From positions 1 through 64,000 of the IMG/VR virus record IMGVR_UViG_3300010939_000064: 64,000 nt of DNA. One strand, 5' to 3'. How positions within the stretch are numbered: position 1 is the first letter of the stretch; every line of letters starts with the position of its first letter. The position numbers were made by a program, and so were the translations under genes. Under the pieces are notes generated by a model. It was not told where the DNA came from and did not search any database. It worked only from the letters and a program-made list of their open reading frames with translations. The DNA is from a virus. This document shows positions 1,849 to 64,000 of this stretch, in pieces.

Positions 1849-2184
1849 ATGCATTATACTTTGTTACAACAGTTGTTGGATAGTCAATTACAAATGCAAG
1901 AAGAATATTTTCCAGAAATCAAGAAATTAAGTCAAGGAGAACAAATGTTAATTAATACTAGAGCGATGATTCATGAAACAATAGAAGTTGAAAATGAATT
2001 AAATTGGAAACATTGGAAAAAACCTATACTAATAAATGATAAAGCTATTAAAGATGAAATAGTGGATCAATTTATATTTTTGATGAATGAAATAAACATT
2101 AGTAAAATGGACGCAGAAGAATTATATGAACGTACTATGAATAAGATTAATATTAATATTGCGCGTCAGAAGTCCGGCTATTGA
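1849..2184 (+). CDS. all-alpha NTP pyrophosphohydrolase, dimeric dUTPase/dCTPase-like (dUTPase_2 type)
   Basis: Pattern ..AMIHETIEVENELNWKHWKK..IKDEIVDQFIFLMNE..Y..MNKININIARQKSGY matches the E..E...WK.W...E.vD.lhF...K...N..R...GY signature. GGAGGT lies 8 nt upstream of the ATG. Confidence 0.55.
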   Translation: MHYTLLQQLLDSQLQMQEEYFPEIKKLSQGEQMLINTRAMIHETIEVENELNWKHWKKPILINDKAIKDEIVDQFIFLMNEINISKMDAEELYERTMNKININIARQKSGY

Positions 2185-8734: not shown

Positions 8735-8752
8735 AGTCCGTAAGTAACAGTC

Positions 8753-9397
8753 ATGAACAATAAAGTTTTAATTCTGATTGGAGTTGCTCTTGGAGTAATA
8801 ATTACTGCAAGTGTAATCGGCGGGCAACAAATGATAGCACAGGGAGATCTAACTGCAGCAGAAGTTATGGCTATTGTTGGAGACAATCCTGTCTTCATGT
8901 GGAACTTGATTAAAGACGACGCTAACACAGTAATTTCCGAAGAAATAAATGTGTTAAGTAATGCAGCGCAAGATTTAAGCAATACTGTACAAAGTCTAAA
9001 CAATACCATTGATAATCTTGAAAGTAGAATTGCTTCATTAGAAAATAGATTTCTAATAGTAGAAGCAACTGGTCAAGTAACAACTTCGCCTGTAAGTCCA
9101 ACCACGAATGATTATGATTTGACATGTTTAATCGTGTCTGGTGTAGAACTATTAGATTGTGAATACGCACAAGATCAAATAGTTTATATTCGTGGAACAC
9201 ATGATACTGGTGGACTGGACTATAAGTGGTCTATTAAAAGAGGTACTCAAACTTTGATATCACAAACATCTAGCCTTCCTAGTAATGGGCAGTTTTTGTT
9301 TGTGTTTAATACTGGAGGAGATGCTCTTTTAGGACCATACACTGCTGTAGTATTGATTGACGGAAAGACTGATGTACTTGAATTTAGTTTCAAGTAG
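8753..9397 (+). CDS. membrane-anchored coiled-coil protein (higher-GC island)
   Basis: N-terminal TM anchor VLILIGVALGVIITASVIGG, heptad-like region NVLSNAAQDLSNTVQSLNNTIDNLESRIASLENRF, then a beta-rich C-terminal domain. Confidence 0.55.
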   Translation: MNNKVLILIGVALGVIITASVIGGQQMIAQGDLTAAEVMAIVGDNPVFMWNLIKDDANTVISEEINVLSNAAQDLSNTVQSLNNTIDNLESRIASLENRFLIVEATGQVTTSPVSPTTNDYDLTCLIVSGVELLDCEYAQDQIVYIRGTHDTGGLDYKWSIKRGTQTLISQTSSLPSNGQFLFVFNTGGDALLGPYTAVVLIDGKTDVLEFSFK

Positions 9398-10112: not shown

Positions 10113-10325
10113 ATGGGAAAGTATGAACATATAATGACGAAACAAAGTGATGTCCAATATAAGATTATGATGGCTAATATTGCTGTTGCTAATGAATTGG
10201 ATGAAGCAAATCGGTTAAAAAGAATTGATTTAGCTGTTCAAATAATAAAATTGGATTCTGCTGAAAAGAAAAGAGTTGAAGCTGAAATAGCAGAAGATCT
10301 TGATTTGACAGAACAAACCGGATGA
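10113..10325 (+). CDS. hypothetical protein (helical, acidic C-terminus)
   Basis: 70-aa ORF. AGGAGGT lies 7 nt upstream. Confidence 0.5.
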   Translation: MGKYEHIMTKQSDVQYKIMMANIAVANELDEANRLKRIDLAVQIIKLDSAEKKRVEAEIAEDLDLTEQTG

Positions 10326-11902
10326 ATATTGTTGGATTAAGTGCAATTACGGCTGAGTATATTCAGCATTGTGGATCTGATAATATGGTTGTTAAAGCAG
10401 CTAGAGTTTCTATGAGCAAAGATGAAGTTAATATTAAACCAGATGAGACTCAATTGATTAAGGATTTAGTTGCCAAAAAACATCTTACTCCGTTTGAGAT
10501 GTGTGATATAACGTTTCTTGTTTCATGCCCTATATTTGTTGTTAGGCAATTTCATAGGCATAGGACTTTTTGTGTAAGTGGAGATACTGAAGTATATACA
10601 GATCCACCATCTAGTGTTAGAACTGATAGGCGTAGATTACATAAGATACCAATAGAGAGATTATATTATAGTCTTTTTAATGATATTACAAAGATTCATT
10701 TGAGAACGTATGATGTTAAACGTAATACTTTTGATTGGACACATATAAAGAAGGTATTTCAAAATGGCATGAAACATATGTATAGAATAACTTTGGCTGA
10801 TGGAAAAACTATTACTTGTACTAAAGAACATAGATTTTTAGGTAAAAATGGTTTTGAAACGCTTGAAGATACTATAGGTTTGATACATATAAACAAAAGC
10901 GTTGGTATGACTAAAAGAGGTATTATAAAAGTCAATGGTCAGTATCTTAAAGGTCAGATTCCTTGGAATAAAGGAGTTAAAGGATATAAAATCAATAACA
11001 CAATTTCTGATGAACAAAGAGAGGCTATACGTAACGCAAGATCTGGAAAGAAATCTAATTTCTGGAAAGGTGGAGTATCTTCTGAAAGACAGTTAATTGC
11101 AACATGGACTACAAATCAGACTACAGCAGTTCATAAGAAGTTTAATTATATATGTCAGAAGTGTGGAAAGAAAGGCGGTAAATTACATGCACATCATATA
11201 AAGTCAGTTGTAGAATTTCCTAAACTTGCTAAAGATTTTAATAATTTAGAATCTATATGCGTTTCGTGTCATAAAATAGAACATAAACAAAATGGAGATG
11301 CATTAAAATGGAGAAATTCTCATAATGGGAATCTATTGATTCCGAGAGAGGTTGAAATAATTAAGATAGAATATGTTGGAATAAAAGAATCATATGACTT
11401 AGAAGTTGAACATGAGGATCACAATTATATTGCGAATGGTATAATTGTTCACAATAGTTATAATGAATGGAGCGCGACTTATTCTACTGTTGGGGAAAGT
11501 TTTTATGTACCTAAAGAGATTAGACTTGAAGATAGTAATGTTAAAGCGCAATCAACATTTAGTGATGAAAAAAGTAAAGAACTATTAGGTCTTATTGAAT
11601 ATGAATGTTACAAATCTACTGAAGGTTATTGTAAATTAATTTCTAATGGAGTTTCTTTAGAAATGGCGAGGATGATTTTACCTCAGAATATGATGACTAA
11701 GTTTTATGCTAAAGGTAATATTAGAAATTGGGTTCAATATTGCGCAATAAGATGTAATAAGCGCGTATTGTATGAACATCAGGTACTAGCTAAACAGATA
11801 TTTAAAGAAATACTTAAGATGTTTCCTATTTCTGTTTGGGCGCTTGCTAAAGATATGTTTGATGAAGAGACTTTTAAGTCTTTAAATTTAAAACGAAAAT
11901 GA
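10322..11902 (+). CDS. thyX: FAD-dependent thymidylate synthase ThyX, interrupted by an intein
   Basis: N-extein ends ..VVRQFHRHRTF and C-extein starts SYNEWSATYS... Joined they give the ThyX signature RHRxxSxNxxSxxY. The extein total of 231 aa is typical for ThyX. Confidence 0.85.
   Translation: MNIVGLSAITAEYIQHCGSDNMVVKAARVSMSKDEVNIKPDETQLIKDLVAKKHLTPFEMCDITFLVSCPIFVVRQFHRHRTFCVSGDTEVYTDPPSSVRTDRRRLHKIPIERLYYSLFNDITKIHLRTYDVKRNTFDWTHIKKVFQNGMKHMYRITLADGKTITCTKEHRFLGKNGFETLEDTIGLIHINKSVGMTKRGIIKVNGQYLKGQIPWNKGVKGYKINNTISDEQREAIRNARSGKKSNFWKGGVSSERQLIATWTTNQTTAVHKKFNYICQKCGKKGGKLHAHHIKSVVEFPKLAKDFNNLESICVSCHKIEHKQNGDALKWRNSHNGNLLIPREVEIIKIEYVGIKESYDLEVEHEDHNYIANGIIVHNSYNEWSATYSTVGESFYVPKEIRLEDSNVKAQSTFSDEKSKELLGLIEYECYKSTEGYCKLISNGVSLEMARMILPQNMMTKFYAKGNIRNWVQYCAIRCNKRVLYEHQVLAKQIFKEILKMFPISVWALAKDMFDEETFKSLNLKRK
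10571..11455 (+). mobile_element. intein (295 aa) with HNH-type endonuclease domain
   Basis: It starts at Cys84 (CVSGDTEVYT, block A), contains TCTKEHRFL (block B) and ends GIIVHN followed by Ser (+1). The internal HNH motif is HAHHIKSV..NNLESICVSCHKIEH. Coordinates were checked codon by codon (TGT 10571-10573, AAT 11453-11455). Confidence 0.8.
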
Positions 11903-13407: not shown

Positions 13408-13845
13408 ATGGTTAAAAAAATTCATCACTCGATTCATAATTATCCACATAAGGATAAATTGATAGCTGATACAATTAAATATTATAGATCACTTAAAGAT
13501 ATTTCTAATAAATATGGACAAATGTATTTTGAAGACTTGGATGATTTCTTTTTGGATATAGTTAAATTTTATAAATTAGGAACTAAAATCATGAATCCAA
13601 GAACTCATTTTTTAGAACCGCATGGGCATCATGAGGGTGGTCATACTCATCAGATTGATACAGGTATTTATTATCTTCAAATACCGAAGAATTCTGGCAA
13701 TTTATTTTTTCATAATTTAGGTATTACTATTGAAGCGCAGGTAGATCATTTTATAGTTGTTCCAAGTAATGAACTTCATGGTATTACTATGAATAAAAGT
13801 AATGAAATAAGAATAGCTTTAGCTTTTGATATTGAACAAATTTGA
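13408..13845 (+). CDS. 2OG-Fe(II) oxygenase-superfamily protein (TIGR02466-like)
   Basis: HGHHEGGHTHQIDTGIYYLQIPKNSGNLFFHN....HFIVVPSNELHGITMNKSNEIRIALAFD resembles H.H....sGvyYl..p..sG.l.f....g.l.lFPS.l.H.V..n.s...RiSisFN. Confidence 0.45.
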   Translation: MVKKIHHSIHNYPHKDKLIADTIKYYRSLKDISNKYGQMYFEDLDDFFLDIVKFYKLGTKIMNPRTHFLEPHGHHEGGHTHQIDTGIYYLQIPKNSGNLFFHNLGITIEAQVDHFIVVPSNELHGITMNKSNEIRIALAFDIEQI

Positions 13846-14910: not shown

Positions 14911-15312
14911 TTGAGTAAAAGTAATAAGTATAATGGAATGTTTAAGCATTTAAAAATAGAAAAAGCAGGTGGAATGGCATGGGGTATTACAGGTAAAAAT
15001 ACTCTTTGGTGGTTTATAGCTGATAGTAGAGATCCGAGAATTTTTATGCAGAATCTTCTACCGGGATTTCATGAGTTATTGCATGCACTTTACCAGCAGG
15101 AAGTTGGAACTGAACATGTTAAGTATCTTACTTCAGATCCGCCTGAAGTTAGAAGAGTAGGTCAAACTGGACCTATGGCAACAGTTGTGGTTCATGATGA
15201 ATGGTACGGATTTAAAACATGGATTAGAATATGGTTTAAACATGGTGGTTGGCTTCCAATGAGAATGCCTTATATACCAATTAAAGTAGGAAAGAAAAGG
15301 TATAATATATGA
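14911..15312 (+). CDS. hypothetical protein with HExxH motif (possible zincin-like metallopeptidase)
   Basis: Contains PGFHELLHALY. TTG start. The 3' end is duplicated downstream of the following HNH gene. Confidence 0.4.
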   Translation: MSKSNKYNGMFKHLKIEKAGGMAWGITGKNTLWWFIADSRDPRIFMQNLLPGFHELLHALYQQEVGTEHVKYLTSDPPEVRRVGQTGPMATVVVHDEWYGFKTWIRIWFKHGGWLPMRMPYIPIKVGKKRYNI

Positions 15313-15845
15313 AAAACATTTGTATAATAGAAGAATGTAATGATTTTGTGCATGGAAATAGACTTTGTGGAAAACATTATAGAAGAGAATATTTATATGG
15401 AAGTCCACATGATATTATAGTTAAACAACATATTAGAGAAATATGTTCAATGCCTAATTGTGATAAAAAATATGCTGCAAAAGGTTTATGTCTTCAACAT
15501 TACAATGCTTTACCATATCACAAAGAAAGAAGAAGACGTAATGCATTAAAATATATGAAAAATAATAGAGATAAAGCAATTGAAGCAACAAGTAGATATT
15601 TAGAAAAGATGAGTAAATGTTTTAACATAAGTGGAAACATGTATAAGATATTAATAGATTGTTGGTCCAGAATAATTAAATATAGAGATAAGAAATGTGT
15701 TATTTGTGGTTCTGTAAATACATTAAATGCACATCATATATTTTATAAAAAAGATTATCCTATGTTAAGTTTAAATGAAAATAACGGAATAACATTATGT
15801 AGAAAATGTCATAGAGAATTACATGGAGGACATTGGAATGAATAA
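15309..15845 (+). CDS. HNH endonuclease (free-standing, different family from the five HNH_3 paralogs)
   Basis: C-terminal NAHHIFYKKDYPMLSLNENNGITLCRKCHRELH. Two N-terminal C..C......G.C..HY modules. Confidence 0.8.
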   Translation: MKNICIIEECNDFVHGNRLCGKHYRREYLYGSPHDIIVKQHIREICSMPNCDKKYAAKGLCLQHYNALPYHKERRRRNALKYMKNNRDKAIEATSRYLEKMSKCFNISGNMYKILIDCWSRIIKYRDKKCVICGSVNTLNAHHIFYKKDYPMLSLNENNGITLCRKCHRELHGGHWNE

Positions 15846-17460: not shown

Positions 17461-17820
17461 ATGAAGGGTATAGTTACTCTTTGTGGATCGACAAGATTTA
17501 AACGAGAGTTTGAGGAAATGAACGCGCTTTTAACTTTTGAAGGATGGATTGTTTTGAGTGTAGGTATTTTTGTGCATGATGAAAATAATAAAACTATAAA
17601 GGCTGAGATAAAGAAAAAGAAAAATATGTTAGATACTCTGCATAAAGAAAAAATAGAGATGTCTCAGTTTATTATTATTATTAATAAAGATGGATATATT
17701 GGTAAATCTACTGGAGAGGAAATTAAATACGCAGAAGAAATAGGTAAATCTGTTTATTATTGGAATAATAGATATTCATGGTTTAATGAAAAATTAATAA
17801 AAGCTTATGAAAAAGTTTAA
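17461..17820 (+). CDS. nucleoside 2-deoxyribosyltransferase-like / DUF4406-like protein
   Basis: N-terminus IVTLCGSTRFKREFEEMNALLTFEGWIVLS resembles the CGS.RF...f......L...G..V signature of this Rossmann-like family. Confidence 0.35.
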   Translation: MKGIVTLCGSTRFKREFEEMNALLTFEGWIVLSVGIFVHDENNKTIKAEIKKKKNMLDTLHKEKIEMSQFIIIINKDGYIGKSTGEEIKYAEEIGKSVYYWNNRYSWFNEKLIKAYEKV

Positions 17821-47427: not shown

Positions 47428-48246
47428 ATGATTATTAAGAATCTAGAAAATTGGTATACGAGTAAAAGGGTCACGGAGATCACCACACTAGTGGGTAACA
47501 CAGGTTATGGAAAAACTTATTCAGCAGGATTAATAGAAGAAAAGTACATGAAAGAATCATGGCCTCTGGCTGTTATTGATAAAATGGGGATTCATTATGT
47601 TTTAAGAAATAAATATAATAAATGTATTATAATTGGTGGAGATCATGGTGATTTTGGTACTGATCAGATTGATTTGGTTATGCCAATAATCATGGAAAAA
47701 GGTTATAGTTTTATTTTAGATTTAAGTGAATTTGATGAGTTTTTTGCACAGGAATTTGTAGCAGATTTCTTTGAATATGTGTTTCAATGGCATAAAGAAA
47801 ATCAGAAACCTAGACATTATATGATTGAAGAAGCTGATGCGTTCCTTGGACAAACAGGAACTATGAAGGAATGTAAAGCAGTCTTAACTAGATGTATAAC
47901 TAAAGGGCGAATGAATGGATTTGGGTTTACATTAATTTCTCAGAGATTTAGAATGCTTGATAAAACTCCTTTAGGTCAAACAAAGAATTATATTATTTTT
48001 AATATGAAGTTACCAATAGATTTGAATACATTAAAGTTATTAGTAGGTGATGATATATCGTTTAAGGTTAGGAGATTAAAGCAAGGTCAATGTATAATAA
48101 TGACAGATGAAGGTTATTCATCATATACTATAGGAACGAGAGAATGTCCAACTGCAGGCGATACTCCAGAAATTGGTGTTATATTAAAGAAAGTAGAAAT
48201 TTTACCATTAGATGAAAAGATTAAAAAAGAATTGAAAGGACATTAA
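47428..48246 (+). CDS. P-loop ATPase (HerA/FtsK-like, DUF87-type)
   Basis: Walker A is LVGNTGYGKTYSAG and Walker B is HYMIEEADAFL. Confidence 0.5.
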   Translation: MIIKNLENWYTSKRVTEITTLVGNTGYGKTYSAGLIEEKYMKESWPLAVIDKMGIHYVLRNKYNKCIIIGGDHGDFGTDQIDLVMPIIMEKGYSFILDLSEFDEFFAQEFVADFFEYVFQWHKENQKPRHYMIEEADAFLGQTGTMKECKAVLTRCITKGRMNGFGFTLISQRFRMLDKTPLGQTKNYIIFNMKLPIDLNTLKLLVGDDISFKVRRLKQGQCIIMTDEGYSSYTIGTRECPTAGDTPEIGVILKKVEILPLDEKIKKELKGH

Positions 48247-53156: not shown

Positions 53157-54125
53157 ATGGATAAAAATCAAGCTTTGCAAAATATTGCAAAGAAAGGGAA
53201 AACAGAGGTCGCTGTTCTTGAAACTGAGTTAACAGAAATTATTTCGCAAATGCCGGATTCACCTGACAGAGAACGCCTAGCAATGAGAGAGTTAAACAAC
53301 AGGTATAGCGGTCCACCAGACAAAACAGTTAAGTTTGATGTGTGTATAGTTGGATTGTACAATCTCACTGACTTTAACAGAAAAGCTACAAAGACAGCAA
53401 TGGACGCATATAAGGCTGATAAAGAGGGAACTCTTGAAAGAGGCATGGTACAACTTATTGATGGTGAACCAGTTGCCATTGATTTAAAGGAAACCTTTGG
53501 TGATAATATTAAGAACAATAACTATGGTAAACCATTAGGACATAGTTATAATAGAAATGTTCTTGTTTTAGCCAAAGAAGATGGTACACTTGAATGGAAA
53601 ATGTCTACGATAGCATTGAGAGGCGATTTTTCATCAACAAGTTTGCCTGAAATGCATAAAGTACTAAAGTGTAATCTATTAGGAGAAATAGTAAAAGAAC
53701 TTAAAACAGCAAAAAGTACTAAGTTTACTGTTTCAGATGAAGCTGTAGATTTTAATACGGTATTAACTGATATAGCAAAAGATCATATTGTTATGTTAGG
53801 TGACTGTTTAACTGAAGCAAAAAAACACGACAAGAAAGAAAAAGGTTTCTATAATAGATTTGTTATTACATCTGGTGAATGTAGATTTATGAATGATCCA
53901 AAGAAAGAAGGTGGAAACTTCAATGGAACATTTGATGACTTTACAACAGATAAGATGATAACAGCATTTGTTGATCCAGCATTAGGTAAACCTGATATTG
54001 GATCTGAATATACATTGATTGCGCAGACATCTGTTAAGAAGGAACAAAAAAAGAATGATGCGGGAGAATACGTTGACACTGATGAGGATGCACTCATCAT
54101 GAATGTTATGGGATATTATTCCTAA
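53157..54125 (+). CDS. hypothetical replication-module protein (possible ssDNA-binding protein by position)
   Basis: 322 aa, first gene of the replication cluster. AAGGAGA upstream and a T10 terminator downstream. Confidence 0.3.
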   Translation: MDKNQALQNIAKKGKTEVAVLETELTEIISQMPDSPDRERLAMRELNNRYSGPPDKTVKFDVCIVGLYNLTDFNRKATKTAMDAYKADKEGTLERGMVQLIDGEPVAIDLKETFGDNIKNNNYGKPLGHSYNRNVLVLAKEDGTLEWKMSTIALRGDFSSTSLPEMHKVLKCNLLGEIVKELKTAKSTKFTVSDEAVDFNTVLTDIAKDHIVMLGDCLTEAKKHDKKEKGFYNRFVITSGECRFMNDPKKEGGNFNGTFDDFTTDKMITAFVDPALGKPDIGSEYTLIAQTSVKKEQKKNDAGEYVDTDEDALIMNVMGYYS

Positions 54126-54149: not shown

Positions 54150-54977
54150 ATGTCAGCTAATATTGAGACGACGCAAAGTACATCAGAAAAGTATGATATA
54201 GATACTTTATTTGAAAATGCGCACGCACAACAAGAAAAGAATCCATATATAAGTTGTATATTTTGGGGACCGCCAGAATCTGGTAAAACGTATACTGCGT
54301 TATCGTTTCCTGGACCGATCCATTATGTTGATTTAGATGGTGGATTAGATTTAAATCTAAAATACTATAAAGATAAAGATATTCAACGCATTAGGTGCAT
54401 TAGTTTGGATGACGATAAAGAGAATCTTGCAGATCCAAAAGATTATGATGGATTCAAGGTTGATCCAATTAATACATTAAGGAATTTTGATGTTGCGTGT
54501 ACAGTACTTCAACAGAAAAAAGGTGGTACAGTTGTTGTCGATACAATGACAGCGTATAATGAGTGGCTTAAAGCATTGATGACTGCCAGAATTCCTAAAC
54601 ATATAAACAAAGAAGGACAAGAATATGTGGACCAATTCGATTGGAAATATGTCAATCAAAAATGGTTATGGTCTTGGGAGAAACTAAAGAATATATCGGC
54701 AAATTTAGTAGTTACCGCAAAATCTAAACCTGTATATCAAGGTAGAGACATTACTGAAAATATTGAAGCAGATTTACGGCCTAATACAGGATTTCAGACT
54801 GCGATTAATGTTGAGTTTACTAAAGATGTTTCACAGGCACAAGATGGGAAAGTAACCACTGTACGAAAAGCTAAATTTAATAAATTTAGAGGTAATAAAC
54901 TTGGATCTACATATAGTATTGAAAATCTTACATATGATAAGATAATGGATATTCTTAAGGCAGAAAAACAAGTATGA
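54150..54977 (+). CDS. RecA-like ATPase (AAA_24 / Sak4-like)
   Basis: Walker A is CIFWGPPESGKTYTAL and Walker B is TVVVDTMTAY. Confidence 0.55.
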   Translation: MSANIETTQSTSEKYDIDTLFENAHAQQEKNPYISCIFWGPPESGKTYTALSFPGPIHYVDLDGGLDLNLKYYKDKDIQRIRCISLDDDKENLADPKDYDGFKVDPINTLRNFDVACTVLQQKKGGTVVVDTMTAYNEWLKALMTARIPKHINKEGQEYVDQFDWKYVNQKWLWSWEKLKNISANLVVTAKSKPVYQGRDITENIEADLRPNTGFQTAINVEFTKDVSQAQDGKVTTVRKAKFNKFRGNKLGSTYSIENLTYDKIMDILKAEKQV

Positions 54978-55558
54978 GTAATATTTTAGATAATTATAAT
55001 AAAGATAATAAATTACTTTTACCTAAGGGTATGTTAAATAATTTTATGGCAAAAATTAACATACCTAAAGATAAAAGTAAATGTTGGATATGGATGGCGT
55101 CGTTAAACAATGGATATGGTACTTTTAGTACATATGGACTTACTGGTAAATTTGTTCATAGAATTATGTATGAACTAATTAAAGGAAGGATTAAAGAATC
55201 TTACACAATAGATCATTTATGTAGTAATAAATTATGTGTAAATCCAGAGCATTTAGAACAAGTAACTCGTGATGAGAATTTATTGAGGGGCAACGGCGAT
55301 TTAACTCACGCTGGATTTTGTTCCAAAGGTCATAAAAGAACATTAGATAATATTTATATTACACCAAGTACTGGTGCAACTAGGTGTCGTAAATGTAAAG
55401 GAATTTATCATCCGGAAAGAAAAGATTTTGTTAATAATAAAGATAAAACTTATTGTAAAAGAGGACATGAGTTTACTAAAGAAAATACTTATTTAAGATC
55501 AAATGGTGGACGACAGTGTAGAACATGTATGAGTTTAAGAAATAAAGGATTAATATGA
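54974..55558 (+). CDS. HNH homing endonuclease, paralog 2 of 5
   Basis: YTIDHLCSNKLCVNPEHLEQVTRDENLLRG plus two C..GH...C..C modules. Confidence 0.8.
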   Translation: MSNILDNYNKDNKLLLPKGMLNNFMAKINIPKDKSKCWIWMASLNNGYGTFSTYGLTGKFVHRIMYELIKGRIKESYTIDHLCSNKLCVNPEHLEQVTRDENLLRGNGDLTHAGFCSKGHKRTLDNIYITPSTGATRCRKCKGIYHPERKDFVNNKDKTYCKRGHEFTKENTYLRSNGGRQCRTCMSLRNKGLI

Positions 55559-58116
55559 TAGATATATATAGAAAAGTACACACAGGAATTAGTTTCTCTA
55601 CTAAAGGAAGACCTATTTTAGATATTTTCTCTAGAGATAAAGATAATAATAGGGGTACTATTAAAATATTAGATTTACCAATATATTTCTACTTAAAAGA
55701 AGATGAGTATATTGAAGAAATAGATAGAAAATCAAGTATTATTGGTGAATATTATGGATATATGAGTTTATATGGAGAAAAACTTAAGAAAGTTAAAGTT
55801 AAAAAAATATCAGATATGCGTAGATTAGGTAAAATATATCATGGTTATGAGTCAGATATTAATTGGAGTAAAAAATGTATGTTAGATTTACAAATTACTG
55901 ATAAGTTTCTTTATCATGAAGGAAAAGCTTATACTCTTGATCCTAGATTTAATGCATTAAAAGATAAACAGATGGAGGTATTGACAGATGATGGATTATC
56001 AATATCTACTACTGTCGAGAGTAATGTGGATAAATTACTTATATCAAAAGCGTTAGAAGAAGAAGGTGATTTACATAATTATAAACCAAAGATTGGAACT
56101 GAACCATTTGAGGTTAGATACGGAATTTTTGATATCGAAGTTGTTGTTAATAAAAGAGAGGATCTTAAAACTTATAATGGTAAAATAGTTTGTGTTGTTA
56201 TTTATGATTCTTATACTAAATTGTATCATAAATTAAAATTAGATCTTAGTGAAAAAGATTTTATTAAGACAGTTTTAAGTAAATTCCGTGAATTAGATTT
56301 TGATATTATAAGTGGATGGAATGTTAAATTTGATATGGGGTGGCTTATAAATAAAGCTGAAGATTATAATTTAGATTTAAGTATTTATTTTCCTGGAGGT
56401 AAAACTTTTATTAGTAAGTATACTGACCATGAAGGTAAATTTAAAGAAAGTTTTTATATTGGTGGACGGGTTCTTCTTGATGGAATGGATTTATATATTA
56501 AGAAAACCGCTACAACTGAAAAGCTTAATTCTTATAATTTAAAGTCTGTTGCTGCTGCTGAAAAGTTACCTGAATGGACAGATTTAGGTGGTCAAGTTAA
56601 AGAAATATGGGAAAATAATCCTAATCTAATTTTAGACTACTGTAAAATAGATGTTGAAAGAACTATGCAAATTATTGAAAAGAAGGATTTACTTGGTGGT
56701 GCCCTTACTATTTGTAAATTTTATGGCTGTGGATTTGAAGATGTTACTGTTAATTCTAAAATTATTGATTGTCTTAGTTTTTTGCTTAAAAAGAATCGTA
56801 TTCTTCCTAATATTATTAGAGGTCGAGAAAAAGCTAAAATTACAGGAGCAAAAGTTCTTGGTACAAAAGCCGGTGTACATAAGAATGTAGGTGTACTTGA
56901 TGCTGCTAGTTTGTATCCAAGTATTATTCAAGGTTTGAATATTTCTCCTGAATGTTTAGTTTATGAAAAGGATTTATCTGAAGATAGGCGTATACATTGT
57001 ATTACTGTGGATTCTTATACTGCTAAACATTATTTGTACAAAAAAGAATATAAAGTAGGATTAATGACTGAAGTTATTCAAGAGATGAGAAAATTAAGGG
57101 AAGAAATTAGATCCAATAGAGCGCAAGCAACTAAAGATAATGATACAGAAAAATTTACTCTTCACAATAATGAAGAAAAAGTAGCTAAAGGAGTTCTTGC
57201 TTCTGTTTATGGTGTTATGGGATTTAATGGATTTAGATTATTTAATGAAGATTGTGCTAATATTATCACTAAAGTTGCACGTGATACTGTTTTAATGACT
57301 GCTGAAAAGTTAGAATCAGATCGTTTTCATGTTATTGCAGGTGATACAGATTCATTATTTGTTCAAATGAATAATGTTAACGATGGATTTATTGCTGCTG
57401 ATATAATAGATAAAATGGCTGTAGACTATATGAAAAAATTAGGTATAAATGAATCTATAATTAAAGTTAATTATGAGAAGTTCTTTAAATGGATTATGTT
57501 TAGTAAAAAAGTTTCTAAAAAAAGAAAAACAAAATTATATAAAGTAGATGAAGGTTCAGCTAAAAAGAGATATATTGGATTTATTAGTCATGTTGAAAGT
57601 GGTCCACGAGAAATGAAGGAAGTTAATGAGTTATATTATAAAGGATTTGAATTACGTAGAAGTGATAGCGCAAAAGTTTTGAAAGATGTTATGCGCAAAT
57701 TTTTTAATCTTATGGAAGACGGTAATTATAAGTTAGCTGTTAAATATTTAAGAGATGTTAAAGATGCATTTCATGGTTATACAATGGATTATGTTTCTAT
57801 GCCTAGATCAGTTAATGTTGAAGACGCTAAGGGTCCATGGGCTGACGGATATAGATACGCGAAGACAGAACTTAAATTTGAATTTGAACCTGAAACTATG
57901 CCTAAACTTATTTATGTTAAAAATCAATTTAAATATCCTAAGACTAAAGTTATCTGTTATCAAGATGGACATGCTATACCACCAGAGTTTAAGATTGATT
58001 ATGATACTATGTTTGATAAGATTATTAAAGCTAAGTTTGAACCTATTCTCGAATCATTAGGAACCTATTGGGATGTATCTATCAATAACCAAGTTGCGTT
58101 AGATCAGTGGTGTTAA
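55555..58116 (+). CDS. polB: family B DNA polymerase
   Basis: Exo I YGIFDIEVV, Exo II ISGWNVKFDMGWL, Exo III YCKIDVERT, motif A VLDAASLYPSII, motif B KGVLASVYGVMG and motif C VIAGDTDSLFV. Confidence 0.9.
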   Translation: MIDIYRKVHTGISFSTKGRPILDIFSRDKDNNRGTIKILDLPIYFYLKEDEYIEEIDRKSSIIGEYYGYMSLYGEKLKKVKVKKISDMRRLGKIYHGYESDINWSKKCMLDLQITDKFLYHEGKAYTLDPRFNALKDKQMEVLTDDGLSISTTVESNVDKLLISKALEEEGDLHNYKPKIGTEPFEVRYGIFDIEVVVNKREDLKTYNGKIVCVVIYDSYTKLYHKLKLDLSEKDFIKTVLSKFRELDFDIISGWNVKFDMGWLINKAEDYNLDLSIYFPGGKTFISKYTDHEGKFKESFYIGGRVLLDGMDLYIKKTATTEKLNSYNLKSVAAAEKLPEWTDLGGQVKEIWENNPNLILDYCKIDVERTMQIIEKKDLLGGALTICKFYGCGFEDVTVNSKIIDCLSFLLKKNRILPNIIRGREKAKITGAKVLGTKAGVHKNVGVLDAASLYPSIIQGLNISPECLVYEKDLSEDRRIHCITVDSYTAKHYLYKKEYKVGLMTEVIQEMRKLREEIRSNRAQATKDNDTEKFTLHNNEEKVAKGVLASVYGVMGFNGFRLFNEDCANIITKVARDTVLMTAEKLESDRFHVIAGDTDSLFVQMNNVNDGFIAADIIDKMAVDYMKKLGINESIIKVNYEKFFKWIMFSKKVSKKRKTKLYKVDEGSAKKRYIGFISHVESGPREMKEVNELYYKGFELRRSDSAKVLKDVMRKFFNLMEDGNYKLAVKYLRDVKDAFHGYTMDYVSMPRSVNVEDAKGPWADGYRYAKTELKFEFEPETMPKLIYVKNQFKYPKTKVICYQDGHAIPPEFKIDYDTMFDKIIKAKFEPILESLGTYWDVSINNQVALDQWC

Positions 58117-58118
58117 TA

Positions 58119-58712
58119 ATGACTAAATATGATAATGTAAATAAATTAGTTTTACCATGTGATGTATTAGATAAATTTATTAAAAAATTAATAATTCCTA
58201 AAGATATAACACAATGTTGGTTGTGGAAAGGAATACATTCGCCAAAAGGATATGCAAGATGGAGTACTTGTTATTCTAAAAGCGCACATGTAAGTAGGAT
58301 AATTTATGAATTAATATTTGAAAGAATAGAAGAAAAATTAGTTATAGATCATTTATGTTGTAATAAAAGTTGTGTAAATCCTAATCATTTAGAAATTGTA
58401 ACAATGGGAGAAAATACAAAAAGAGGTAATACTAAATTGAGACATAATGATTATTGTAAAAATGGGCATAAAAGAACTTTAGATAATATTTATATACGTA
58501 AAAATGGATTTGTGCAATGTCGTAAGTGTTTAGGAATCTATCATCCTGATAGATTAGATAGAAAACCAGGTATTAATCATAATACTTTTAAAACTATATG
58601 TATAAGAGGACATAAATTTGATGAACAAAATACAGGATTTAATAAAGATGGAAGTAGGTACTGTAAATCGTGTAAATCGTTAAGTAATAAAGGAATGTTA
58701 ACAACATTATGA
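58119..58712 (+). CDS. HNH homing endonuclease, paralog 3 of 5
   Basis: LVIDHLCCNKSCVNPNHLEIVTMGENTKRG. The likely start is ATG 58119 (MTKYDNVNKLVLP), as in the paralogs. The track start GTG 58107 lies inside polB. Confidence 0.8.
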   Translation: MTKYDNVNKLVLPCDVLDKFIKKLIIPKDITQCWLWKGIHSPKGYARWSTCYSKSAHVSRIIYELIFERIEEKLVIDHLCCNKSCVNPNHLEIVTMGENTKRGNTKLRHNDYCKNGHKRTLDNIYIRKNGFVQCRKCLGIYHPDRLDRKPGINHNTFKTICIRGHKFDEQNTGFNKDGSRYCKSCKSLSNKGMLTTL

Positions 58713-59468: not shown

Positions 59469-59571
59469 ATGTTCAGATTGTGATGATACTGGTATTATAG
59501 TTGTTGGTGGATTAAAAACTAGATGCTGGAACTGTTCATCGTTTAAAGGTTGGAATAGAAAAAATGACTGA
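59461..59571 (+). CDS. DnaJ-type CxxCxGxG zinc mini-protein (36 aa)
   Basis: MVKCSDCDDTGIIVVGGLKTRCWNCSSFKGWNRKND. It overlaps both neighbours. Confidence 0.4.
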   Translation: MVKCSDCDDTGIIVVGGLKTRCWNCSSFKGWNRKND

Positions 59572-60010
59572 ATATAATAATAATAATAAAATGATTTTAA
59601 CTGAGAATATGGTAAATAAAATAAGAAATAAAATTATTATTACTCTAAATGGAGATGAATGCTGGGATTGGAAAGGATCTTATAGTAAATCAGGATATGC
59701 AACATTCAATTTAGGATCTGGAATTAGTAATCGTGTTCATAAAATTTTATATGAATTAACTATAGGTAAAGTACCAGAAGGTTTAGAATTAAATCATAAA
59801 TGTTGTAACAGATGGTGTGTTAATGCTGGTCACTTAGAGATAGTTACACATCAAGAGAATCAATTAAAAGGTGGAAGTTTGTTAACTCAAAAAGGATTTT
59901 GTAAAAATGGACATAAAAGAACTATTGAAAATACTTATTTTAAACCTGATAAAACTAGTATTGAATGTAAAGAATGTAATAAAATTAGACAAAAAAATAG
60001 ATATAAATAA
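59564..60010 (+). CDS. HNH homing endonuclease, paralog 4 of 5 (short form with one C-terminal Cys module)
   Basis: LELNHKCCNRWCVNAGHLEIVTHQENQLKG. Confidence 0.75.
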   Translation: MTEYNNNNKMILTENMVNKIRNKIIITLNGDECWDWKGSYSKSGYATFNLGSGISNRVHKILYELTIGKVPEGLELNHKCCNRWCVNAGHLEIVTHQENQLKGGSLLTQKGFCKNGHKRTIENTYFKPDKTSIECKECNKIRQKNRYK

Positions 60011-60019
60011 GTTTAAAGG

Positions 60020-60379
60020 ATGGGGGCATGGAAGATGAATGGAGATATTGGTAGAATCGATCCTGATTTTGATACTATAATTAAAGAATGTATAAAACAA
60101 TTAAAGATTAAATTTCCTAACTACGGAAATACATGGTTAGAGCAAGATGATAAACATTATAAAGAAAGAATTAAAAAAGAGGTTAATGAATATATTGATA
60201 GTATGTCAATAGATTCTGAACGTCGTAAATTATTAAACATAATTAATTTAGCAGCAATGGCTTATCAGACGGCACATGTAAATAGAGCAGATAGACGTAT
60301 ATCAGCTAGATGTCCAAAATGCAGTAAGCCTTTAACATTGCATAACATAAAAGATGGATTTTTTGTATGCCTTGACTGA
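60020..60379 (+). CDS. hypothetical protein (helical N-terminal part, C-terminal Zn-ribbon)
   Basis: ..NTWLEQDDKHYKERIKKEVNEYIDS..LLNIINLAAMAY.. is weakly MazG-like. The C-terminus has ARCPKCSKPL. Confidence 0.3.
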   Translation: MGAWKMNGDIGRIDPDFDTIIKECIKQLKIKFPNYGNTWLEQDDKHYKERIKKEVNEYIDSMSIDSERRKLLNIINLAAMAYQTAHVNRADRRISARCPKCSKPLTLHNIKDGFFVCLD

Positions 60380-60526
60380 TATAGAATCAAATAAAGAAAT
60401 ATGTCCAGACTGTAGTAGTATAATGATTACTGGTGGATATGAATCAAATCTTAAACCAACTGAATTTTATTGTCATTGTGGATATTGTAGAATAGAACAA
60501 GATAAGTTGATAGGAGAATTTAGATA

Positions 60527-60760
60527 TTGAATAAAGTAATTGTAAAGGCAAAAGCTTTTCGTTTTAATTTTGGCAAGACTAGACTGATTTTTAATTTTGG
60601 TTGGTGTAATCTTTCAAAACAGTATAGAATAGATAGAAGTGGATTATTGCCTTATGTCAATGAATCTGAACCTGAAAAAGGTTATGTTGAATTTGCTAGA
60701 TTAGTATTTATGTTTGGTTACTATCAATTAATTGTTACTAAATTAAAAAAGTGGAAATAA
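60527..60760 (+). CDS. hypothetical protein
   Basis: 77-aa ORF with TTG start. Its N-terminus is weakly similar to ORF 63738..63908. Confidence 0.35.
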   Translation: MNKVIVKAKAFRFNFGKTRLIFNFGWCNLSKQYRIDRSGLLPYVNESEPEKGYVEFARLVFMFGYYQLIVTKLKKWK

Positions 60761-60761
60761 A

Positions 60762-61370
60762 ATGACACGTATTATTACTTTTACAGGTGCTCAAGGCACA
60801 GGTAAAACTGCTACTAGAGGAGAACTTGTTAGATGGTTACAGAAACATAAATATTCTGTTATCGATAGATATTCAGGTGTAAAACAAAGTATTGCAAGAG
60901 ATGCTAAACAGTTTGGATTTATTATAAATGAAAAAACTAATTTTGAATCACAGTATTACATTGCTAGTAGATATATTGTTGCAGATATTGAAACGCGAAA
61001 AAATGCTGAACGAAGAAGTGTTGATTTTATAGTTCTAGATAGATCTGTGCTTGATAGTATTCCTTATATTATGGTGGCTACCGCTATTACAATAAGTCAG
61101 AAAGAGGTACTTAAAAACATGTTAATTGATCATTTTGCTTTATTTCCTAGTAGATTACTTTATTGTGAACCGTTAGATTTTGTTACTTGGGATAAAGATA
61201 GATCTACTAATACGAAATTTCAGGATAGTGTTGATGCTGAATTTAGGAATATTCTTATAAAAGCTTCACAATATTCAAATACGTTTATTTTAAAAAGAGG
61301 ATCTATTGAACAACGGTTAAGAGATGTTATTAAGGAACTAGGTATCGAATGTGGAACTATTAGAATTTAA
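60762..61370 (+). CDS. P-loop NTPase, nucleotide/deoxynucleotide kinase-like
   Basis: Walker A is ITFTGAQGTGKTAT. FIVLDRSVLDSIPY resembles the D-R lid region of dNK/AAA_28 kinases. Confidence 0.45.
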   Translation: MTRIITFTGAQGTGKTATRGELVRWLQKHKYSVIDRYSGVKQSIARDAKQFGFIINEKTNFESQYYIASRYIVADIETRKNAERRSVDFIVLDRSVLDSIPYIMVATAITISQKEVLKNMLIDHFALFPSRLLYCEPLDFVTWDKDRSTNTKFQDSVDAEFRNILIKASQYSNTFILKRGSIEQRLRDVIKELGIECGTIRI

Positions 61371-61410
61371 CAAAATTCGTAAGTCATTATTAATGTCATG
61401 GAAAGTGTAA
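61351..61410 (+). pseudogene. diverged duplicate of the 5' end of the Cas4-like nuclease gene
   Basis: VELLEFNKIRKSLLMSWKV* compared with MKELEFNKVRKSLLMSWKVC.. at 61989. The differences are mostly synonymous. Confidence 0.6.
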
Positions 61411-61988
61411 TGCAAAGTTTAAATTATGATAATGAGAATAAATTAATTCTACCTAAATCTACAGTTAAGAGAATTATCAAGAAAATTATAATACCAGAAG
61501 ATATATCGAAATGTTGGGAATGGATCGGCGGTCGCGCACATGAGTATCCGTATATTAGAATAAATAATATAATGAATAAGCCTGTACATAGGATAATGTA
61601 TGAATTAGTGAATGGTAAAATAGAACAGGGATTAGTTATTGATCATGTTTGTAGTAATAAAAATTGTGTAAATCCACAACATTTAGAAGAAGTAACTAAT
61701 CATGAAAATAATCTTAGAGGTAATACTGATTTACAACATGCTGGATATTGTAAAAATGGACATAAGAGAACTCCTGAAAATACGTACATTAGACCAGATG
61801 GACGTGGTACGTATTGTCGTAAATGTGCAGATATATATCATCCAAAAAGGGAAGATTATATTGTAAATAAAGATAAAACACATTGCATTAGAGGACATGA
61901 ATTTACACTAGAAAATACACGTATAAGAAAATATGGTGGAAGACAATGTAAAACGTGTGATATATTACACGCTAAAGGATTAATTTAA
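61410..61988 (+). CDS. HNH homing endonuclease, paralog 5 of 5
   Basis: LVIDHVCSNKNCVNPQHLEEVTNHENNLRG. The likely start is ATG 61410 (MQSLNYDNENKLILP), with TAATG overlap to the fragment stop. The track start is 61398. Confidence 0.8.
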   Translation: MQSLNYDNENKLILPKSTVKRIIKKIIIPEDISKCWEWIGGRAHEYPYIRINNIMNKPVHRIMYELVNGKIEQGLVIDHVCSNKNCVNPQHLEEVTNHENNLRGNTDLQHAGYCKNGHKRTPENTYIRPDGRGTYCRKCADIYHPKREDYIVNKDKTHCIRGHEFTLENTRIRKYGGRQCKTCDILHAKGLI

Positions 61989-62828
61989 ATGAAAGAATTA
62001 GAATTTAATAAAGTAAGAAAGTCGTTGTTGATGAGTTGGAAGGTATGTCCAAGGCAAAGTTGGTATAGTGTTAGAGATCCAGAATATGGGGAATATAATA
62101 AATTTAATTTTAAAGATCCTGCTTTATTATTAGGACAAATTTTTCATAAAGAAATGGATAAGTTTTATTCTGAAATTGATATTAATGATATGGTAAAAAT
62201 GATGAATAATAATGAAGATTCATGGAAAGTATTAGAAGAGTATTTGTTTAGTCAATTTAGTCAAACAACTCATGAAAAATGTCTTAAATATTTTCATTGG
62301 TATGCTGGTATTGAAGCGCAGAGATTTATTGAGTTATATAGTGAATCTAATACTGGTATTGTTCAAAGATTTATTCCATTATATATAGAGAAATTTGTTG
62401 AAATGATAGATGAAAAAAATAATATATATAGGAATGGACATTTTGATAGAATTGATTATATTTCACCAGGGAAACTTAGACTTGCTGAATATAAAACAGG
62501 ACATAGTTATGATGTAGCAAAGTCTTATAAATTAACTAAATTAAGATTGGAATTATATTATTATAAACGTATTATTGAACAACTTCCTGAATTTAAGGAT
62601 TATGAAGTCTATGAATGGATGCTAATTAATCCTACGACTGAAGCAGTATTTACTTCTAAGTTTTCAGTGTTAACTGAACGTGTGTTAGAAGAGTCAATTC
62701 CAAGGTTAGCTGCGGATATAAATAAGAAAGAACCACCTCGTAGAAATTTAAATTTTTATTGTTTTAGATGTAAGTATAAACGTGGATGTTTAATAGATAT
62801 TGCAGAAAATATATTTGATATAATGTAG
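61989..62828 (+). CDS. Cas4/RecB-like PD-(D/E)XK exonuclease with Cys cluster
   Basis: N-terminal CPRQSWY, core GHFDRIDYISPGKLRLAEYKTG (D...E.K) and C-terminal CFRCKYKRGC. Confidence 0.65.
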   Translation: MKELEFNKVRKSLLMSWKVCPRQSWYSVRDPEYGEYNKFNFKDPALLLGQIFHKEMDKFYSEIDINDMVKMMNNNEDSWKVLEEYLFSQFSQTTHEKCLKYFHWYAGIEAQRFIELYSESNTGIVQRFIPLYIEKFVEMIDEKNNIYRNGHFDRIDYISPGKLRLAEYKTGHSYDVAKSYKLTKLRLELYYYKRIIEQLPEFKDYEVYEWMLINPTTEAVFTSKFSVLTERVLEESIPRLAADINKKEPPRRNLNFYCFRCKYKRGCLIDIAENIFDIM

Positions 62829-63745
62829 TGATGAAGTTTGTACATGTTATAGAAAAAAATAATTTTACAGATTTATATAAACAGTTACAATTTGATTTAG
62901 TTCATGAGGGGATTACTATTGAACCAAGAAGAATGTTAACGCGTGAACTTGTTAATGTTAATCTTGTATTGACTGACCCACAAGAGAGATTGCTTTATTC
63001 AAATGTTCGTAAACATAATTATACGTATGCTTCAGCGGAGTTTCTTTGGTATTTATCAGGTACTAATAGGTTAGATTTTATTGAATATTATTTACCTAAA
63101 ATGAGAGAATATTCTGATGATAAGGTAACACTTAATTCTGCGTATGGATATAGAATATTCGGTAATCATGATGATTTTCCGAATCAATGGATTAATGCTA
63201 TACTTAAAATGAAAGATGATCCATCTACTAGACAAGCTGTGATAACAGTTCATTATCAGTATGATATTGATATGCCATCGAAAGATGTGCCGTGTACTAT
63301 GAATCTTCATTTTATGATAAGAGAAAATAGATTAAATTTATTAGTACAAATGCGAAGTAATGATGCATTCATGGGTTTGATTTATGATGTATTTTCGTTT
63401 ACATTATTACAAGAACATTTTTTTAATTGTTTAAAGGTAACTGATCCTGAGATGTTTGCATATTTGAAATTAGGAACTTATATACATAAGTCTGATTCAA
63501 TGCATCTGTATGAAAGGAATTTAGATAACGTTAATCAATTATTAGATGAAAACTCAGCATCAGCTAGGAATATTATTTCTCCCGATATAGGTTTATTTCT
63601 TGATTCTCTTGATTTGCCTTCACTTCAGAGAGATGAGCAAGCATTGAGAAAACATGGTATAAAGATAGAAACACACTTATATAGAGGGATATGTAGATTT
63701 ATGGCTGAAAAGCTTAATAAAATATTGGAGAAGAAAAATGACTAG
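62828..63745 (+). CDS. ThyA-family enzyme with cytosine-type active site: deoxycytidylate 5-hydroxymethyltransferase (T4 gp42-like) or dCMP methylase
   Basis: EFLWYLSGTN, NSAYGYRIF, DDPSTRQAVITV, VPCTMNLHFMIRENRLNLLVQMRSNDAFMGLIYDVFSF and SDSMHLY. The residue aligned with E. coli ThyA Asn177 is Asp. Confidence 0.6.
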   Translation: MMKFVHVIEKNNFTDLYKQLQFDLVHEGITIEPRRMLTRELVNVNLVLTDPQERLLYSNVRKHNYTYASAEFLWYLSGTNRLDFIEYYLPKMREYSDDKVTLNSAYGYRIFGNHDDFPNQWINAILKMKDDPSTRQAVITVHYQYDIDMPSKDVPCTMNLHFMIRENRLNLLVQMRSNDAFMGLIYDVFSFTLLQEHFFNCLKVTDPEMFAYLKLGTYIHKSDSMHLYERNLDNVNQLLDENSASARNIISPDIGLFLDSLDLPSLQRDEQALRKHGIKIETHLYRGICRFMAEKLNKILEKKND

Positions 63746-63908
63746 TTATATTAGTCTTAAAAAAGCGTCGTTTAGAATAGCTATTAATTTTAATAAATAT
63801 CATGCCTTTAGACATTTTAATAAAACAAGATTTTATTTTGAAATATGGCGTAGTGCTAATAGAAATTGGCATATTGAATTGTTTATAATAGGTAAAAGAG
63901 TTTTATAA
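63738..63908 (+). CDS. mini-protein (56 aa)
   Basis: MTSYISLKKASFRIAINFNKYHAFRHFNKTRFYFEIWRSANRNWHIELFIIGKRVL. It overlaps the upstream stop. Confidence 0.35.
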   Translation: MTSYISLKKASFRIAINFNKYHAFRHFNKTRFYFEIWRSANRNWHIELFIIGKRVL

Positions 63909-64000
63909 TGCTTGAATCACATACTTTCTTTAGGAAAATGGTTGATGAACTCGTAGAGTTCTCTGAATATGATCCTGAGCTTGCTGATGGAATAAAGTGG
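63908..64000 (+). CDS. 5' end of a gene truncated by the window end
   Basis: ATG 63908 (TAATG coupling). MLESHTFFRKMVDELVEFSEYDPELADGIKW.. is open to the window edge. Confidence 0.35.
   Translation, partial: MLESHTFFRKMVDELVEFSEYDPELADGIKW

Follow-up and report, generated by a model that had tools for sequence, protein, structure and literature searches.

The window analysed here is a stretch of 64,000 nucleotides of viral DNA, positions 1 to 64,000 of the IMG/VR record IMGVR_UViG_3300010939_000064. Near its 3' end lies a gene for a member of the thymidylate synthase (ThyA) superfamily, which probably encodes a folate-dependent 5-hydroxymethylase of deoxycytidine monophosphate (dCMP) and is called the hydroxymethylase below. 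The gene and the codons of its active site are as follows.

62828–63745, plus strand: predicted dCMP 5-hydroxymethylase of the ThyA superfamily, MilA-like and of the long form (PF00303, match to MilA, AlphaFold2 model, residue table).
63137–63145, plus strand: Ser104-Ala-Tyr106, the S-x-Y half of a hydroxymethylation signature (PMC6400193); T4 Ser94/Tyr96, E. coli Val93/Tyr94 region.
63230–63235, plus strand: Arg135-Gln136, aligned with E. coli Arg126'-Arg127'.
63284–63286, plus strand: Asp153, predicted to activate water and lying three positions ahead of the Cys, aligned with E. coli Leu143 and T4 Asp145 (role from PMC6400193, PMC13326640).
63293–63295, plus strand: Cys156, catalytic nucleophile (E. 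coli Cys146, T4 Cys148), invariant in 74 homologues.
63356–63364, plus strand: Ser177-Asn178-Asp179; by alignment Ser177 is E. coli Ser167 and Asp179 the pterin-binding Asp169 (PMC5175136, PMC13326640).
63386–63388, plus strand: Asp187 at the base-specificity position, placed by alignments and invariant in the homologue alignment.

The open reading frame (ORF) gives a protein of 305 amino acids from a GTG start, which shares one base with the stop codon of the upstream gene, or of 304 amino acids from an ATG at 62831. The ATG is probably the true start because the match to the closest homologue begins there. The ORF matches the Pfam family Thymidylat_synt (PF00303) at E = 1.6e-19 (70.5 bits; cut-off 24.3) and PHROG 5131 at E = 2e-52. 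It holds the strings VPCT (Cys156), MRSND (Arg176–Asp179) and MHLY (His226, Tyr228), by which a first-pass annotation of the window had recognised a ThyA homologue. Scores against the NCBIfam thymidylate-synthase equivalogs are all far under the cut-offs (65.6 vs 174.55, 59.7 vs 327). A search of public assemblies for the exact ORF sequence returned no record, and one with a second query, P0028, was likewise empty. About 25 close homologues at ≥43% identity are found among metagenomic relatives, and some database homologues carry a thymidylate-kinase domain as a fusion.

Among PDB sequences, the best characterised relative found with HMMER is MilA (E = 1.2e-38, ~30% identity); in the same comparison T4 gp42 is matched at 5.7e-11 and thymidylate synthases at about 3e-11. 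The nearest characterised enzyme is thus MilA and not T4 gp42, with which the first-pass annotation had compared the protein. An AlphaFold2 model built from an alignment of 74 homologues has a mean pLDDT of 95.8 and shows the ThyA fold; structure prediction and superposition had been proposed earlier as a check. Foldseek returned a probability of 1.0 for MilA, ThyA and gp42. The model aligns with MilA over its full length (TM-score 0.83, ~308 columns), including the C-terminal helical domain, and with ThyA, gp42 and AfhB in the core only (TM-score ~0.6). We considered and set aside membership in the T-even gp42 orthologue group (short form, ~246 amino acids): MilA is far closer, and the query has the extra C-terminal helical domain. 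By descent the protein belongs to the long MilA/SPO1-gp29-like branch of the ThyA superfamily, with a predicted function like that of T4 gp42.

For the active site, we aligned the protein with T4 gp42, RB69 gp48, SPO1 gp29, MilA, E. coli ThyA, the homologue of Lactobacillus phage ATCCB and metagenomic homologues. The products of the references are 5-hydroxymethyl-dCMP (gp42), 5-hydroxy-dCMP (RB69 gp48), the 5-hydroxymethyl derivative of deoxyuridine monophosphate (dUMP; SPO1 gp29) and that of cytidine monophosphate (CMP; MilA). The E. coli ThyA reference was verified only by its length of 264 and by the expected residues at 12 landmark positions; the MilA reference is a fragment transcribed from the HMMER alignment. 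HMMER and two MAFFT alignments place Asp187 (LIYDVFSF) opposite E. coli ThyA Asn177 (PFNIASY), T4 gp42 Asp179 and MilA Asp186, so that the Asn-to-Asp change suspected earlier stands, as does the likeness of the MRSND string to gp42, which reads NMRSND.

From E. coli ThyA to the query, the correspondences are E58 to E71, Y94 to Y106, R126 to R135, L143 to D153, C146 to C156, H147 to T157, R166 to R176, S167 to S177, D169 to D179, N177 to D187, H207 to H226 and Y209 to Y228. The catalytic set of the superfamily is complete, and Cys156, Glu71, Arg176, His226 and Tyr228 are invariant across the 74 homologues; Glu71 is the conserved catalytic Glu58, and His226 and Tyr228 are the conserved contacts to the sugar 3'-OH. 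The query equals T4 gp42 at each tested position save R127, where it has Gln, as does the active SPO1 gp29.

Asp at position 177 (E. coli numbering) shifts specificity from dUMP to dCMP, and it is positions 177 and 147 that, in MetaGPA, best separate the ThyA homologues of experimentally cytosine-modified contigs from the rest (PMC8670742). The query has Asp at the first and Thr157, a cytosine-associated residue, at the second. The motifs D-x-x-C and S-x-Y, with Asp or Glu before the Cys and Ser or Thr before the Tyr, have been proposed as a signature of hydroxymethylation, and the T4 gp42 D145N mutant is inactive (PMC6400193). This water-activation signature of the hydroxymethylase class is present in the query as Asp153-Val-Pro-Cys156 and Ser104-Ala-Tyr106. 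All 119 full-length proteins among the best 120 database homologues share the residue signature of the query, one of them with Ala at position 147, which places the query deep within a uniform cytosine-type clade. The D-x-x-C and S-x-Y motifs and the retained Asp169 favour a 5-hydroxymethyl product over a 5-methyl or 5-hydroxy one, and the Ser167 and Arg126 state favours dCMP over CMP. We infer substrate and product from these residues, and consider it very likely that the enzyme is a cytosine-specific deoxynucleotide hydroxymethylase.

The following genes of the window bear on the precursor pathway.

60762–61370, plus strand: thymidylate-kinase-like P-loop kinase, candidate 5-hydroxymethyl-dCMP kinase (PHROG 2107 1.4e-16, AAA_28 2e-7, TIGR00041 2e-5).
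61989–62828, plus strand: PD-(D/E)XK (Cas4-like) nuclease, directly upstream of the hydroxymethylase gene and overlapping its start (PDDEXK_1 3.3e-10; a conserved neighbour).
1849–2184, plus strand: all-alpha nucleoside triphosphate (NTP) pyrophosphatase of the dUTPase_2 family, 111 amino acids, candidate dCTPase and supplier of dCMP and dUMP (PF08761 1.5e-7).
10322–11902, plus strand: ThyX, flavin-dependent thymidylate synthase with an HNH intein (Thy1 3.4e-40, Intein_splicing 5.5e-13, HNH 1.6e-9).
55555–58116, plus strand: family B DNA polymerase (DNA_pol_B 3.6e-34; best phage matches 21–24% identical).
696–1847: lineage-restricted protein of 383 amino acids in which the Walker A (PGFGKT) and Walker B (DEF) motifs are invariant and an RRF is conserved.

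The kinase, noted earlier as P-loop kinase-like, proved to be thymidylate-kinase-like and syntenic with the hydroxymethylase. It has a GTGKT P-loop and reads DRS where thymidylate kinases have DRY, and its alignment with Tmk structures (2pbr) is weak but runs end to end. In three metagenomic contigs related to the window (L004, L005 and L008) it is conserved two genes upstream of the hydroxymethylase.

The pyrophosphatase had been described as dUTPase/dCTPase-like, an assignment strengthened by its kinship with the T4 dCTPase/dUTPase gp56. The T4 protein matches the same Pfam family (PF08761) at 2e-5, and BLASTP aligns the two with 40% identity over 45 amino acids (E = 3e-6). Their global alignment scores z = 7.2 against shuffled sequences, with WKxWK, ExVD, AEE and a terminal RQxxGY in common. 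The gene is syntenic in relatives.

The separate ThyX predicted at 10322 is likewise present, split by an intein of 295 amino acids (residues 84–378, nucleotides 10571–11455) that sits inside the RHRx7S active-site motif of the reconstructed extein. The ThyX of contig L008 is intein-free, with 237 amino acids. With Asp at position 177, a residue other than His at 147, low equivalog scores and a ThyX encoded elsewhere, the hydroxymethylase fits the earlier proposal of a non-redundant, cytosine-type enzyme.

In L004, L005 and L008 the gene order is AAA_24, family B polymerase, RNase H-like gene and so on to the kinase, the PD-(D/E)XK nuclease and the hydroxymethylase, followed downstream by a small ORF, a winged-helix (wHTH) gene, an ERCC4 nuclease, the 383-amino-acid protein and the dUTPase_2-family pyrophosphatase. 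Where measured, proteins of the conserved module are 47–86% identical to those of the window. Positions 1–81 and 63908–64000 of the window are adjacent in these relatives, with ~1.2 kb between them that holds the rest of a 68-amino-acid ORF, the wHTH gene and the ERCC4 nuclease. Thus the window takes in all but a small part of a circularly permuted genome of ~65 kb, and the conserved order makes the kinase and the pyrophosphatase close, conserved neighbours of the hydroxymethylase.

In the proposed reaction, with roles taken from homologues, Cys156 would attack C6 of dCMP while Asp187 would read and protonate the N3/N4 face of the cytosine. The methylene group of methylenetetrahydrofolate would be moved to C5. 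Once tetrahydrofolate leaves, a water activated by Asp153 and held by the Ser104/Tyr106 network would add to the exocyclic methylene to give 5-hydroxymethyl-dCMP, standing in for the hydride transfer of thymidylate synthase.

What the analysis demonstrates is the fold, the residues of the active site and the conserved gene neighbourhood; the role of each accessory gene we infer. The gp56-like pyrophosphatase would cut dCTP (and dUTP) and feed dCMP (and dUMP) to the hydroxymethylase and ThyX, the latter supplying deoxythymidine monophosphate (dTMP). The adjacent kinase would convert 5-hydroxymethyl-dCMP to the diphosphate and a host nucleoside-diphosphate kinase would complete the triphosphate, 5-hydroxymethyl-dCTP, which the viral family B polymerase would have to accept and incorporate. 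Taken as a whole, we consider it likely that the virus combines a folate-dependent dCMP hydroxymethylase with a T4-type precursor pathway giving DNA with 5-hydroxymethylcytosine (5hmC). The virion DNA probably carries this base, with its presence and extent both predicted from the gene set.

Several points weigh against this reading. The assignment of substrate and product relies on residue rules from a handful of characterised enzymes, identity to gp42 is only ~21%, and MilA, the nearest solved relative, prefers CMP. The kinase and the pyrophosphatase are assigned at the family level only. If the pyrophosphatase is simply a dUTPase that supplies ThyX, cytosine replacement could be partial or absent. 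The thymidylate-kinase domains fused to homologous hydroxymethylases are not detectably similar to the window kinase, so that we set these fusions aside as evidence for it and keep them as an analogy only. More than half of the ORFs carry no annotation, which leaves room for an unrecognised 5hmC-modifying transferase. Over the whole window, some palindromes fall below Markov expectation (observed/expected: GGTACC 0/8.0, GGATCC 1/9.4, GTGCAC 0/5.2, GAATTC 14/25.7), while four-base palindromes are near expectation. The depletion of a few GC-containing six-base palindromes, in counts uncorrected for multiple testing, hints at residual restriction pressure or avoidance.

The fate of the hydroxymethylated base is where another reading has most weight. 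Among window ORFs of at least 175 amino acids, Pfam, PHROG and NCBIfam scans found no glycosyltransferase, methyltransferase, carbamoyltransferase or enzyme of nucleoside-diphosphate sugars, in line with the first-pass annotation, which had recognised no glycosyltransferase. Nor does such a decoration gene occur within 10 kb of the hydroxymethylase in L005 or L008. As the genome is near-complete and shows no recognisable transferase, virion DNA is by default predicted to contain plain 5hmC. The main live alternative, which we regard as unlikely, is that 5hmC is only an intermediate that is decorated after replication (with glycosyl, carbamoyl, phosphoryl or amino groups) by enzymes that escaped recognition, leaving hypermodified cytosine in the virion.

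Known hmC phages mostly decorate the base (PMC13326640, PMC8670742). Hydroxymethylase homologues of other viruses adjoin sugar-transfer genes: that of Lactobacillus phage ATCCB lies beside a beta-glucosyltransferase and a UDP-galactopyranose mutase, and that of contig L012 beside an RGP domain. Most window ORFs are also without a family match, including conserved or sizeable ones at 53157–54125 and 7733–8734. Against decoration stands, besides the scans, the nature of the largest unassigned neighbour, the 383-amino-acid protein at 696–1847. Nothing in Pfam, PHROG, NCBIfam or PDB matches it; it has at least 43 metagenomic homologues, all ≥45% identical, and three contigs were seen with both it and the hydroxymethylase. 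Its Walker A and B motifs make it probably a divergent AAA+ or replicative ATPase, and we set it aside as a candidate for a hidden DNA-modifying enzyme in favour of an ATPase of the replication module.

A second alternative draws on a gene outside that module.

17461–17820, plus strand: protein of 119 amino acids with an NDT/DNPH1/BcmB-like fold (AlphaFold2 and Foldseek).

It has no match in Pfam, PHROG or NCBIfam, and a profile search of PDB sequences also found none. Its AlphaFold2 model (pLDDT 88.5) has NDT, DNPH1, BcmB and YtoQ as top Foldseek matches (E 8e-4 to 1e-2, TM-score 0.5–0.65), which bears out at the level of fold the earlier description as NDT-like. Ser83 and Glu87 are invariant, and at least 240 metagenomic homologues make this a widespread family. 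Judged by its modelled fold, the protein is possibly a nucleotide N-glycosidase, and a link to the pathway is speculative.

Such a protein invites comparison with MilA and BcmA, since a CMP hydroxymethylase of that type acting with an NDT-fold MilB/BcmB-like N-glycosidase would yield free 5-hydroxymethylcytosine or manipulate nucleotide pools, with DNA unchanged. MilA is indeed by far the nearest solved relative in both sequence and fold, the C-terminal helical domain included. However, the ribonucleotide preference of MilA and BcmA stems from Ala176 and Lys133, and the MilA double mutant A176S/K133R loses CMP activity and retains dCMP activity (PMC5175136). The query has the deoxyribose-type Ser177 and Arg135 at these positions, the very state that abolishes CMP use in MilA. 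The NDT-like gene is not adjacent: the distance is ~20 kb on the circular genome, or ~45 kb when counted along the window. Members of its family turn up widely in unrelated contigs, and archaeal tailed viruses commonly encode NDT genes (PMC8651126). The hydroxymethylase is embedded in a replication module beside a gene resembling deoxynucleoside monophosphate (dNMP) kinases. With its residues, and with nucleases, a kinase and a wHTH gene as neighbours and no adjacent N-glycosidase, it was not placed in the MilA/BcmA group, and we regard this alternative as very unlikely.

The first-pass annotation had left the product as either 5-hydroxymethyl- or 5-methyl-dC. Asp177 by itself also makes a dCMP methylase out of thymidylate synthase (mutants N177D/N229D, as cited in PMC8670742), so that an Xp12-type dCMP methyltransferase making 5-methylcytosine DNA has to be weighed. 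A bulky hydrophobic residue at position 143 accompanies methyl products (PMC13326640). The query instead has Asp there together with the S-x-Y pair, features tied to water addition and not to hydride transfer (PMC6400193, PMC13326640). This comparison used residue rules from the literature. Of the two products, the 5-hydroxymethyl one is favoured by D-x-x-C and S-x-Y, and the 5-methyl one is disfavoured and in our view highly improbable.

Several of the homologues in databases bear the annotation dUMP hydroxymethyltransferase or thymidylate synthase, and the query shares ~29% identity over 89% of its length with SPO1 gp29, as well as the long form and Arg-Gln at 126/127. A dUMP hydroxymethylase of this kind, or a second thymidylate synthase, would lead to a thymine-analogue base. 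SPO1 gp29 and ThyA, however, have Asn177 and either Asn or His at 147, where Asp and Thr (Ala in one) are found in the query and in the 119 full-length homologues closest to it. The SPO1 gp29 type was set aside on Asp187 vs the Asn of gp29, and a canonical ThyA was rejected on Asp, Thr and Asp at 177, 147 and 143 instead of Asn, His and Leu. The NCBIfam cut-offs for thymidylate synthase are missed widely and dTMP is already available from ThyX, and we see only a very small chance that the enzyme acts on dUMP. Finally, 5-hydroxy-dCMP synthases of the flavin-dependent RB69 gp48/HY126 AfhB type also have Asp177, an acidic residue 143 and a MilA-like structure (PMC13326640), and AfhB is among the fold matches, but their mark, D169N (PMC13326640), is missing from the query, which has Asp179 where RB69 gp48 has Asn and keeps Glu58, Gly173 and Tyr209 where RB69 gp48 in the same alignment has F58, V173 and F209, so that we give this assignment next to no weight.

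The preferred reading, a dCMP hydroxymethylase with 5hmC in virion DNA, may also be considered together with a further gene.

6684–7214, plus strand: glycosylase of the UDG superfamily (PF03167 4.6e-13); a UDG is also found in relative L008.

DNPH1 is a 5-hydroxymethyl-dUMP hydrolase in humans. The UDG-superfamily glycosylase could possibly handle U or 5-hydroxymethyluracil (5hmU) arising by deamination of C or 5hmC, a link to the pathway that is speculative. We regard as doubtful, and put forward only tentatively, a fuller picture in which an undescribed tailed-virus lineage replaces cytosine with undecorated 5hmC, or with a derivative made by enzymes of a new kind, with the DNPH1-like N-glycosidase and the UDG removing deamination-derived 5-hydroxymethyl-dUMP and 5hmU. 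The gene at 12248, listed earlier as a SLOG protein, has only matches below the Pfam cut-offs, and support for that assignment is weak; its position beside ThyX is conserved. A small protein at 13408–13845 resembles 2-oxoglutarate-Fe(II) oxygenases (partial match to PF13759), and relative L005 encodes a different oxygenase of this kind at 14922–15563 (PF13640). By these matches, neither belongs to the TET/JBP family.

The window is the genome of a tailed virus, with tape-measure, tail tube, terminase, family B polymerase and ThyX genes. It is far from described phages: the terminase and the polymerase are only 21–24% identical to any phage, the major capsid candidate has no match, and a DNA search of positions 60000–64000 against GenBank phages gave no match. 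When the lineage-specific 383-amino-acid protein was used to search GTDB genomes and IMG/VR, no relatives came up. Relatives do occur in metagenomes, including Loki's Castle deep-sea sediment (PMC6401483). For the polymerase, a haloarchaeal tailed virus ranks first among the matches and has the widest coverage (97%). The relatives carry ERCC4 and TrmB/HTH_45 regulators, and the window encodes a further protein of interest for the host.

47428–48246: P-loop protein of 272 amino acids with weak HerA/CedD-like matches (NCBIfam 4e-6).

Several genes thus have an archaeal flavour, and the host is possibly archaeal. Scans of the window for sigma-70 promoters and intrinsic terminators showed no enrichment, GGAGG-like motifs precede about one third of the genes, and no tRNA or Rfam family was detected in the window.

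Five paralogous HNH_3 homing-endonuclease genes lie at 84–665, 54974–55558, 58107–58712, 59564–60010 and 61398–61988, and a further HNH gene at 15309–15845. HNH_3 genes interrupt the order of the replication and nucleotide module in the window, and the relatives lack these interruptions: in L005 and L008 the four sites compared, at 84, 54974, 58107 and 61398, are empty. The empty sites suggest recent mobile insertions. Across the whole window, GC skew tracks the direction of transcription very strongly, at about +0.3 where plus-strand genes are grouped and between -0.2 and -0.3 in the structural block on the minus strand (19.3–42.7 kb). A region at 7733–9397 holds genes for proteins of 333 and 214 amino acids, the latter with an N-terminal hydrophobic segment. 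Its GC content is 0.37 vs ~0.30, its amino-acid composition is atypical, and it has no family match and no counterpart in the fetched parts of L005 and L008. It may be a recently acquired accessory module.

Hydroxymethylation of dCMP and ThyA homologues with Asp177 in viromes are already known. Such homologues are common in viromes (PMC8670742), and therefore the conceptual gain is modest; what is new is the very divergent virus lineage. The T4-type precursor pathway would be extended to a lineage from sediment whose host is possibly archaeal. A literature search found no archaeal virus reported with a dCMP hydroxymethylase or with pre-replicative replacement of cytosine, so that an archaeal host might make this the first such case, a speculative point of added interest. 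If the prediction is right, cytosine is hydroxymethylated, fully or in part, in this virus and its relatives, and their DNA would be shielded from many restriction and CRISPR nucleases. Their recovery in metagenomes would be biased, and bisulfite, enzymatic methyl sequencing (EM-seq) and nanopore base-calls distorted. The hydroxymethylase, the kinase and the gp56-like pyrophosphatase form a compact three-gene set for testing.

Among known systems, the MetaGPA ThyA homologues (PMC8670742) share with the query Asp177, a residue other than His at 147 and an origin in uncultivated viral contigs. A modification phenotype, determined by experiment, was the basis on which those contigs were chosen, whereas the query genome is known from sequence alone, and no associated carbamoyltransferase or glycosyltransferase is recognised in it. 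RB69 gp48, DLP3 gp80 and HY126 AfhB have the ThyA fold, the dCMP substrate, Asp177 and the acidic residue at 143 in common with it (PMC13326640), but they carry D169N and use flavin and O2, whereas the query keeps Asp169. SPO1 gp29 is, like the query, a long-form pyrimidine hydroxymethylase with Asp143 and Arg-Gln at 126/127 (~29% identity over 89%); it differs in the uracil-type Asn177 and Asn147, where the query has Asp and Thr.

MilA/BcmA of Streptomyces rimofaciens (PDB 5jnh, 5b6d, 5jp9) is the nearest solved relative and has Asp at both 143 and 177. Its Ala176 and Lys133 confer the CMP preference, in contrast to the Ser and Arg of the query (the dCMP state; PMC5175136). MilA acts with an adjacent N-glycosidase in the synthesis of an antibiotic, mildiomycin, whereas the query gene lies in a viral replication module.

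T4 gp42 (PDB 1b49, 1b5d, 6a9a) is more distant, at ~21% identity and a TM-score of ~0.6, and the query is ~60 amino acids longer, with its C-terminal helical domain. The second dimer-interface arginine of gp42 is Gln in the query. The window virus is unrelated to the T-even phages, and no glucosyltransferase was found among its ORFs of the size searched. The two systems nevertheless share the predicted reaction, an accessory set of the same type (a gp56-like pyrophosphatase and a dNMP-kinase-like gene) and, residue for residue, the equivalents of gp42 Glu60, Ser94-x-Tyr96, Arg123, Asp145-x-x-Cys148, Thr149, Arg-Ser-Asn-Asp 168–171, Asp179, His216 and Tyr218.

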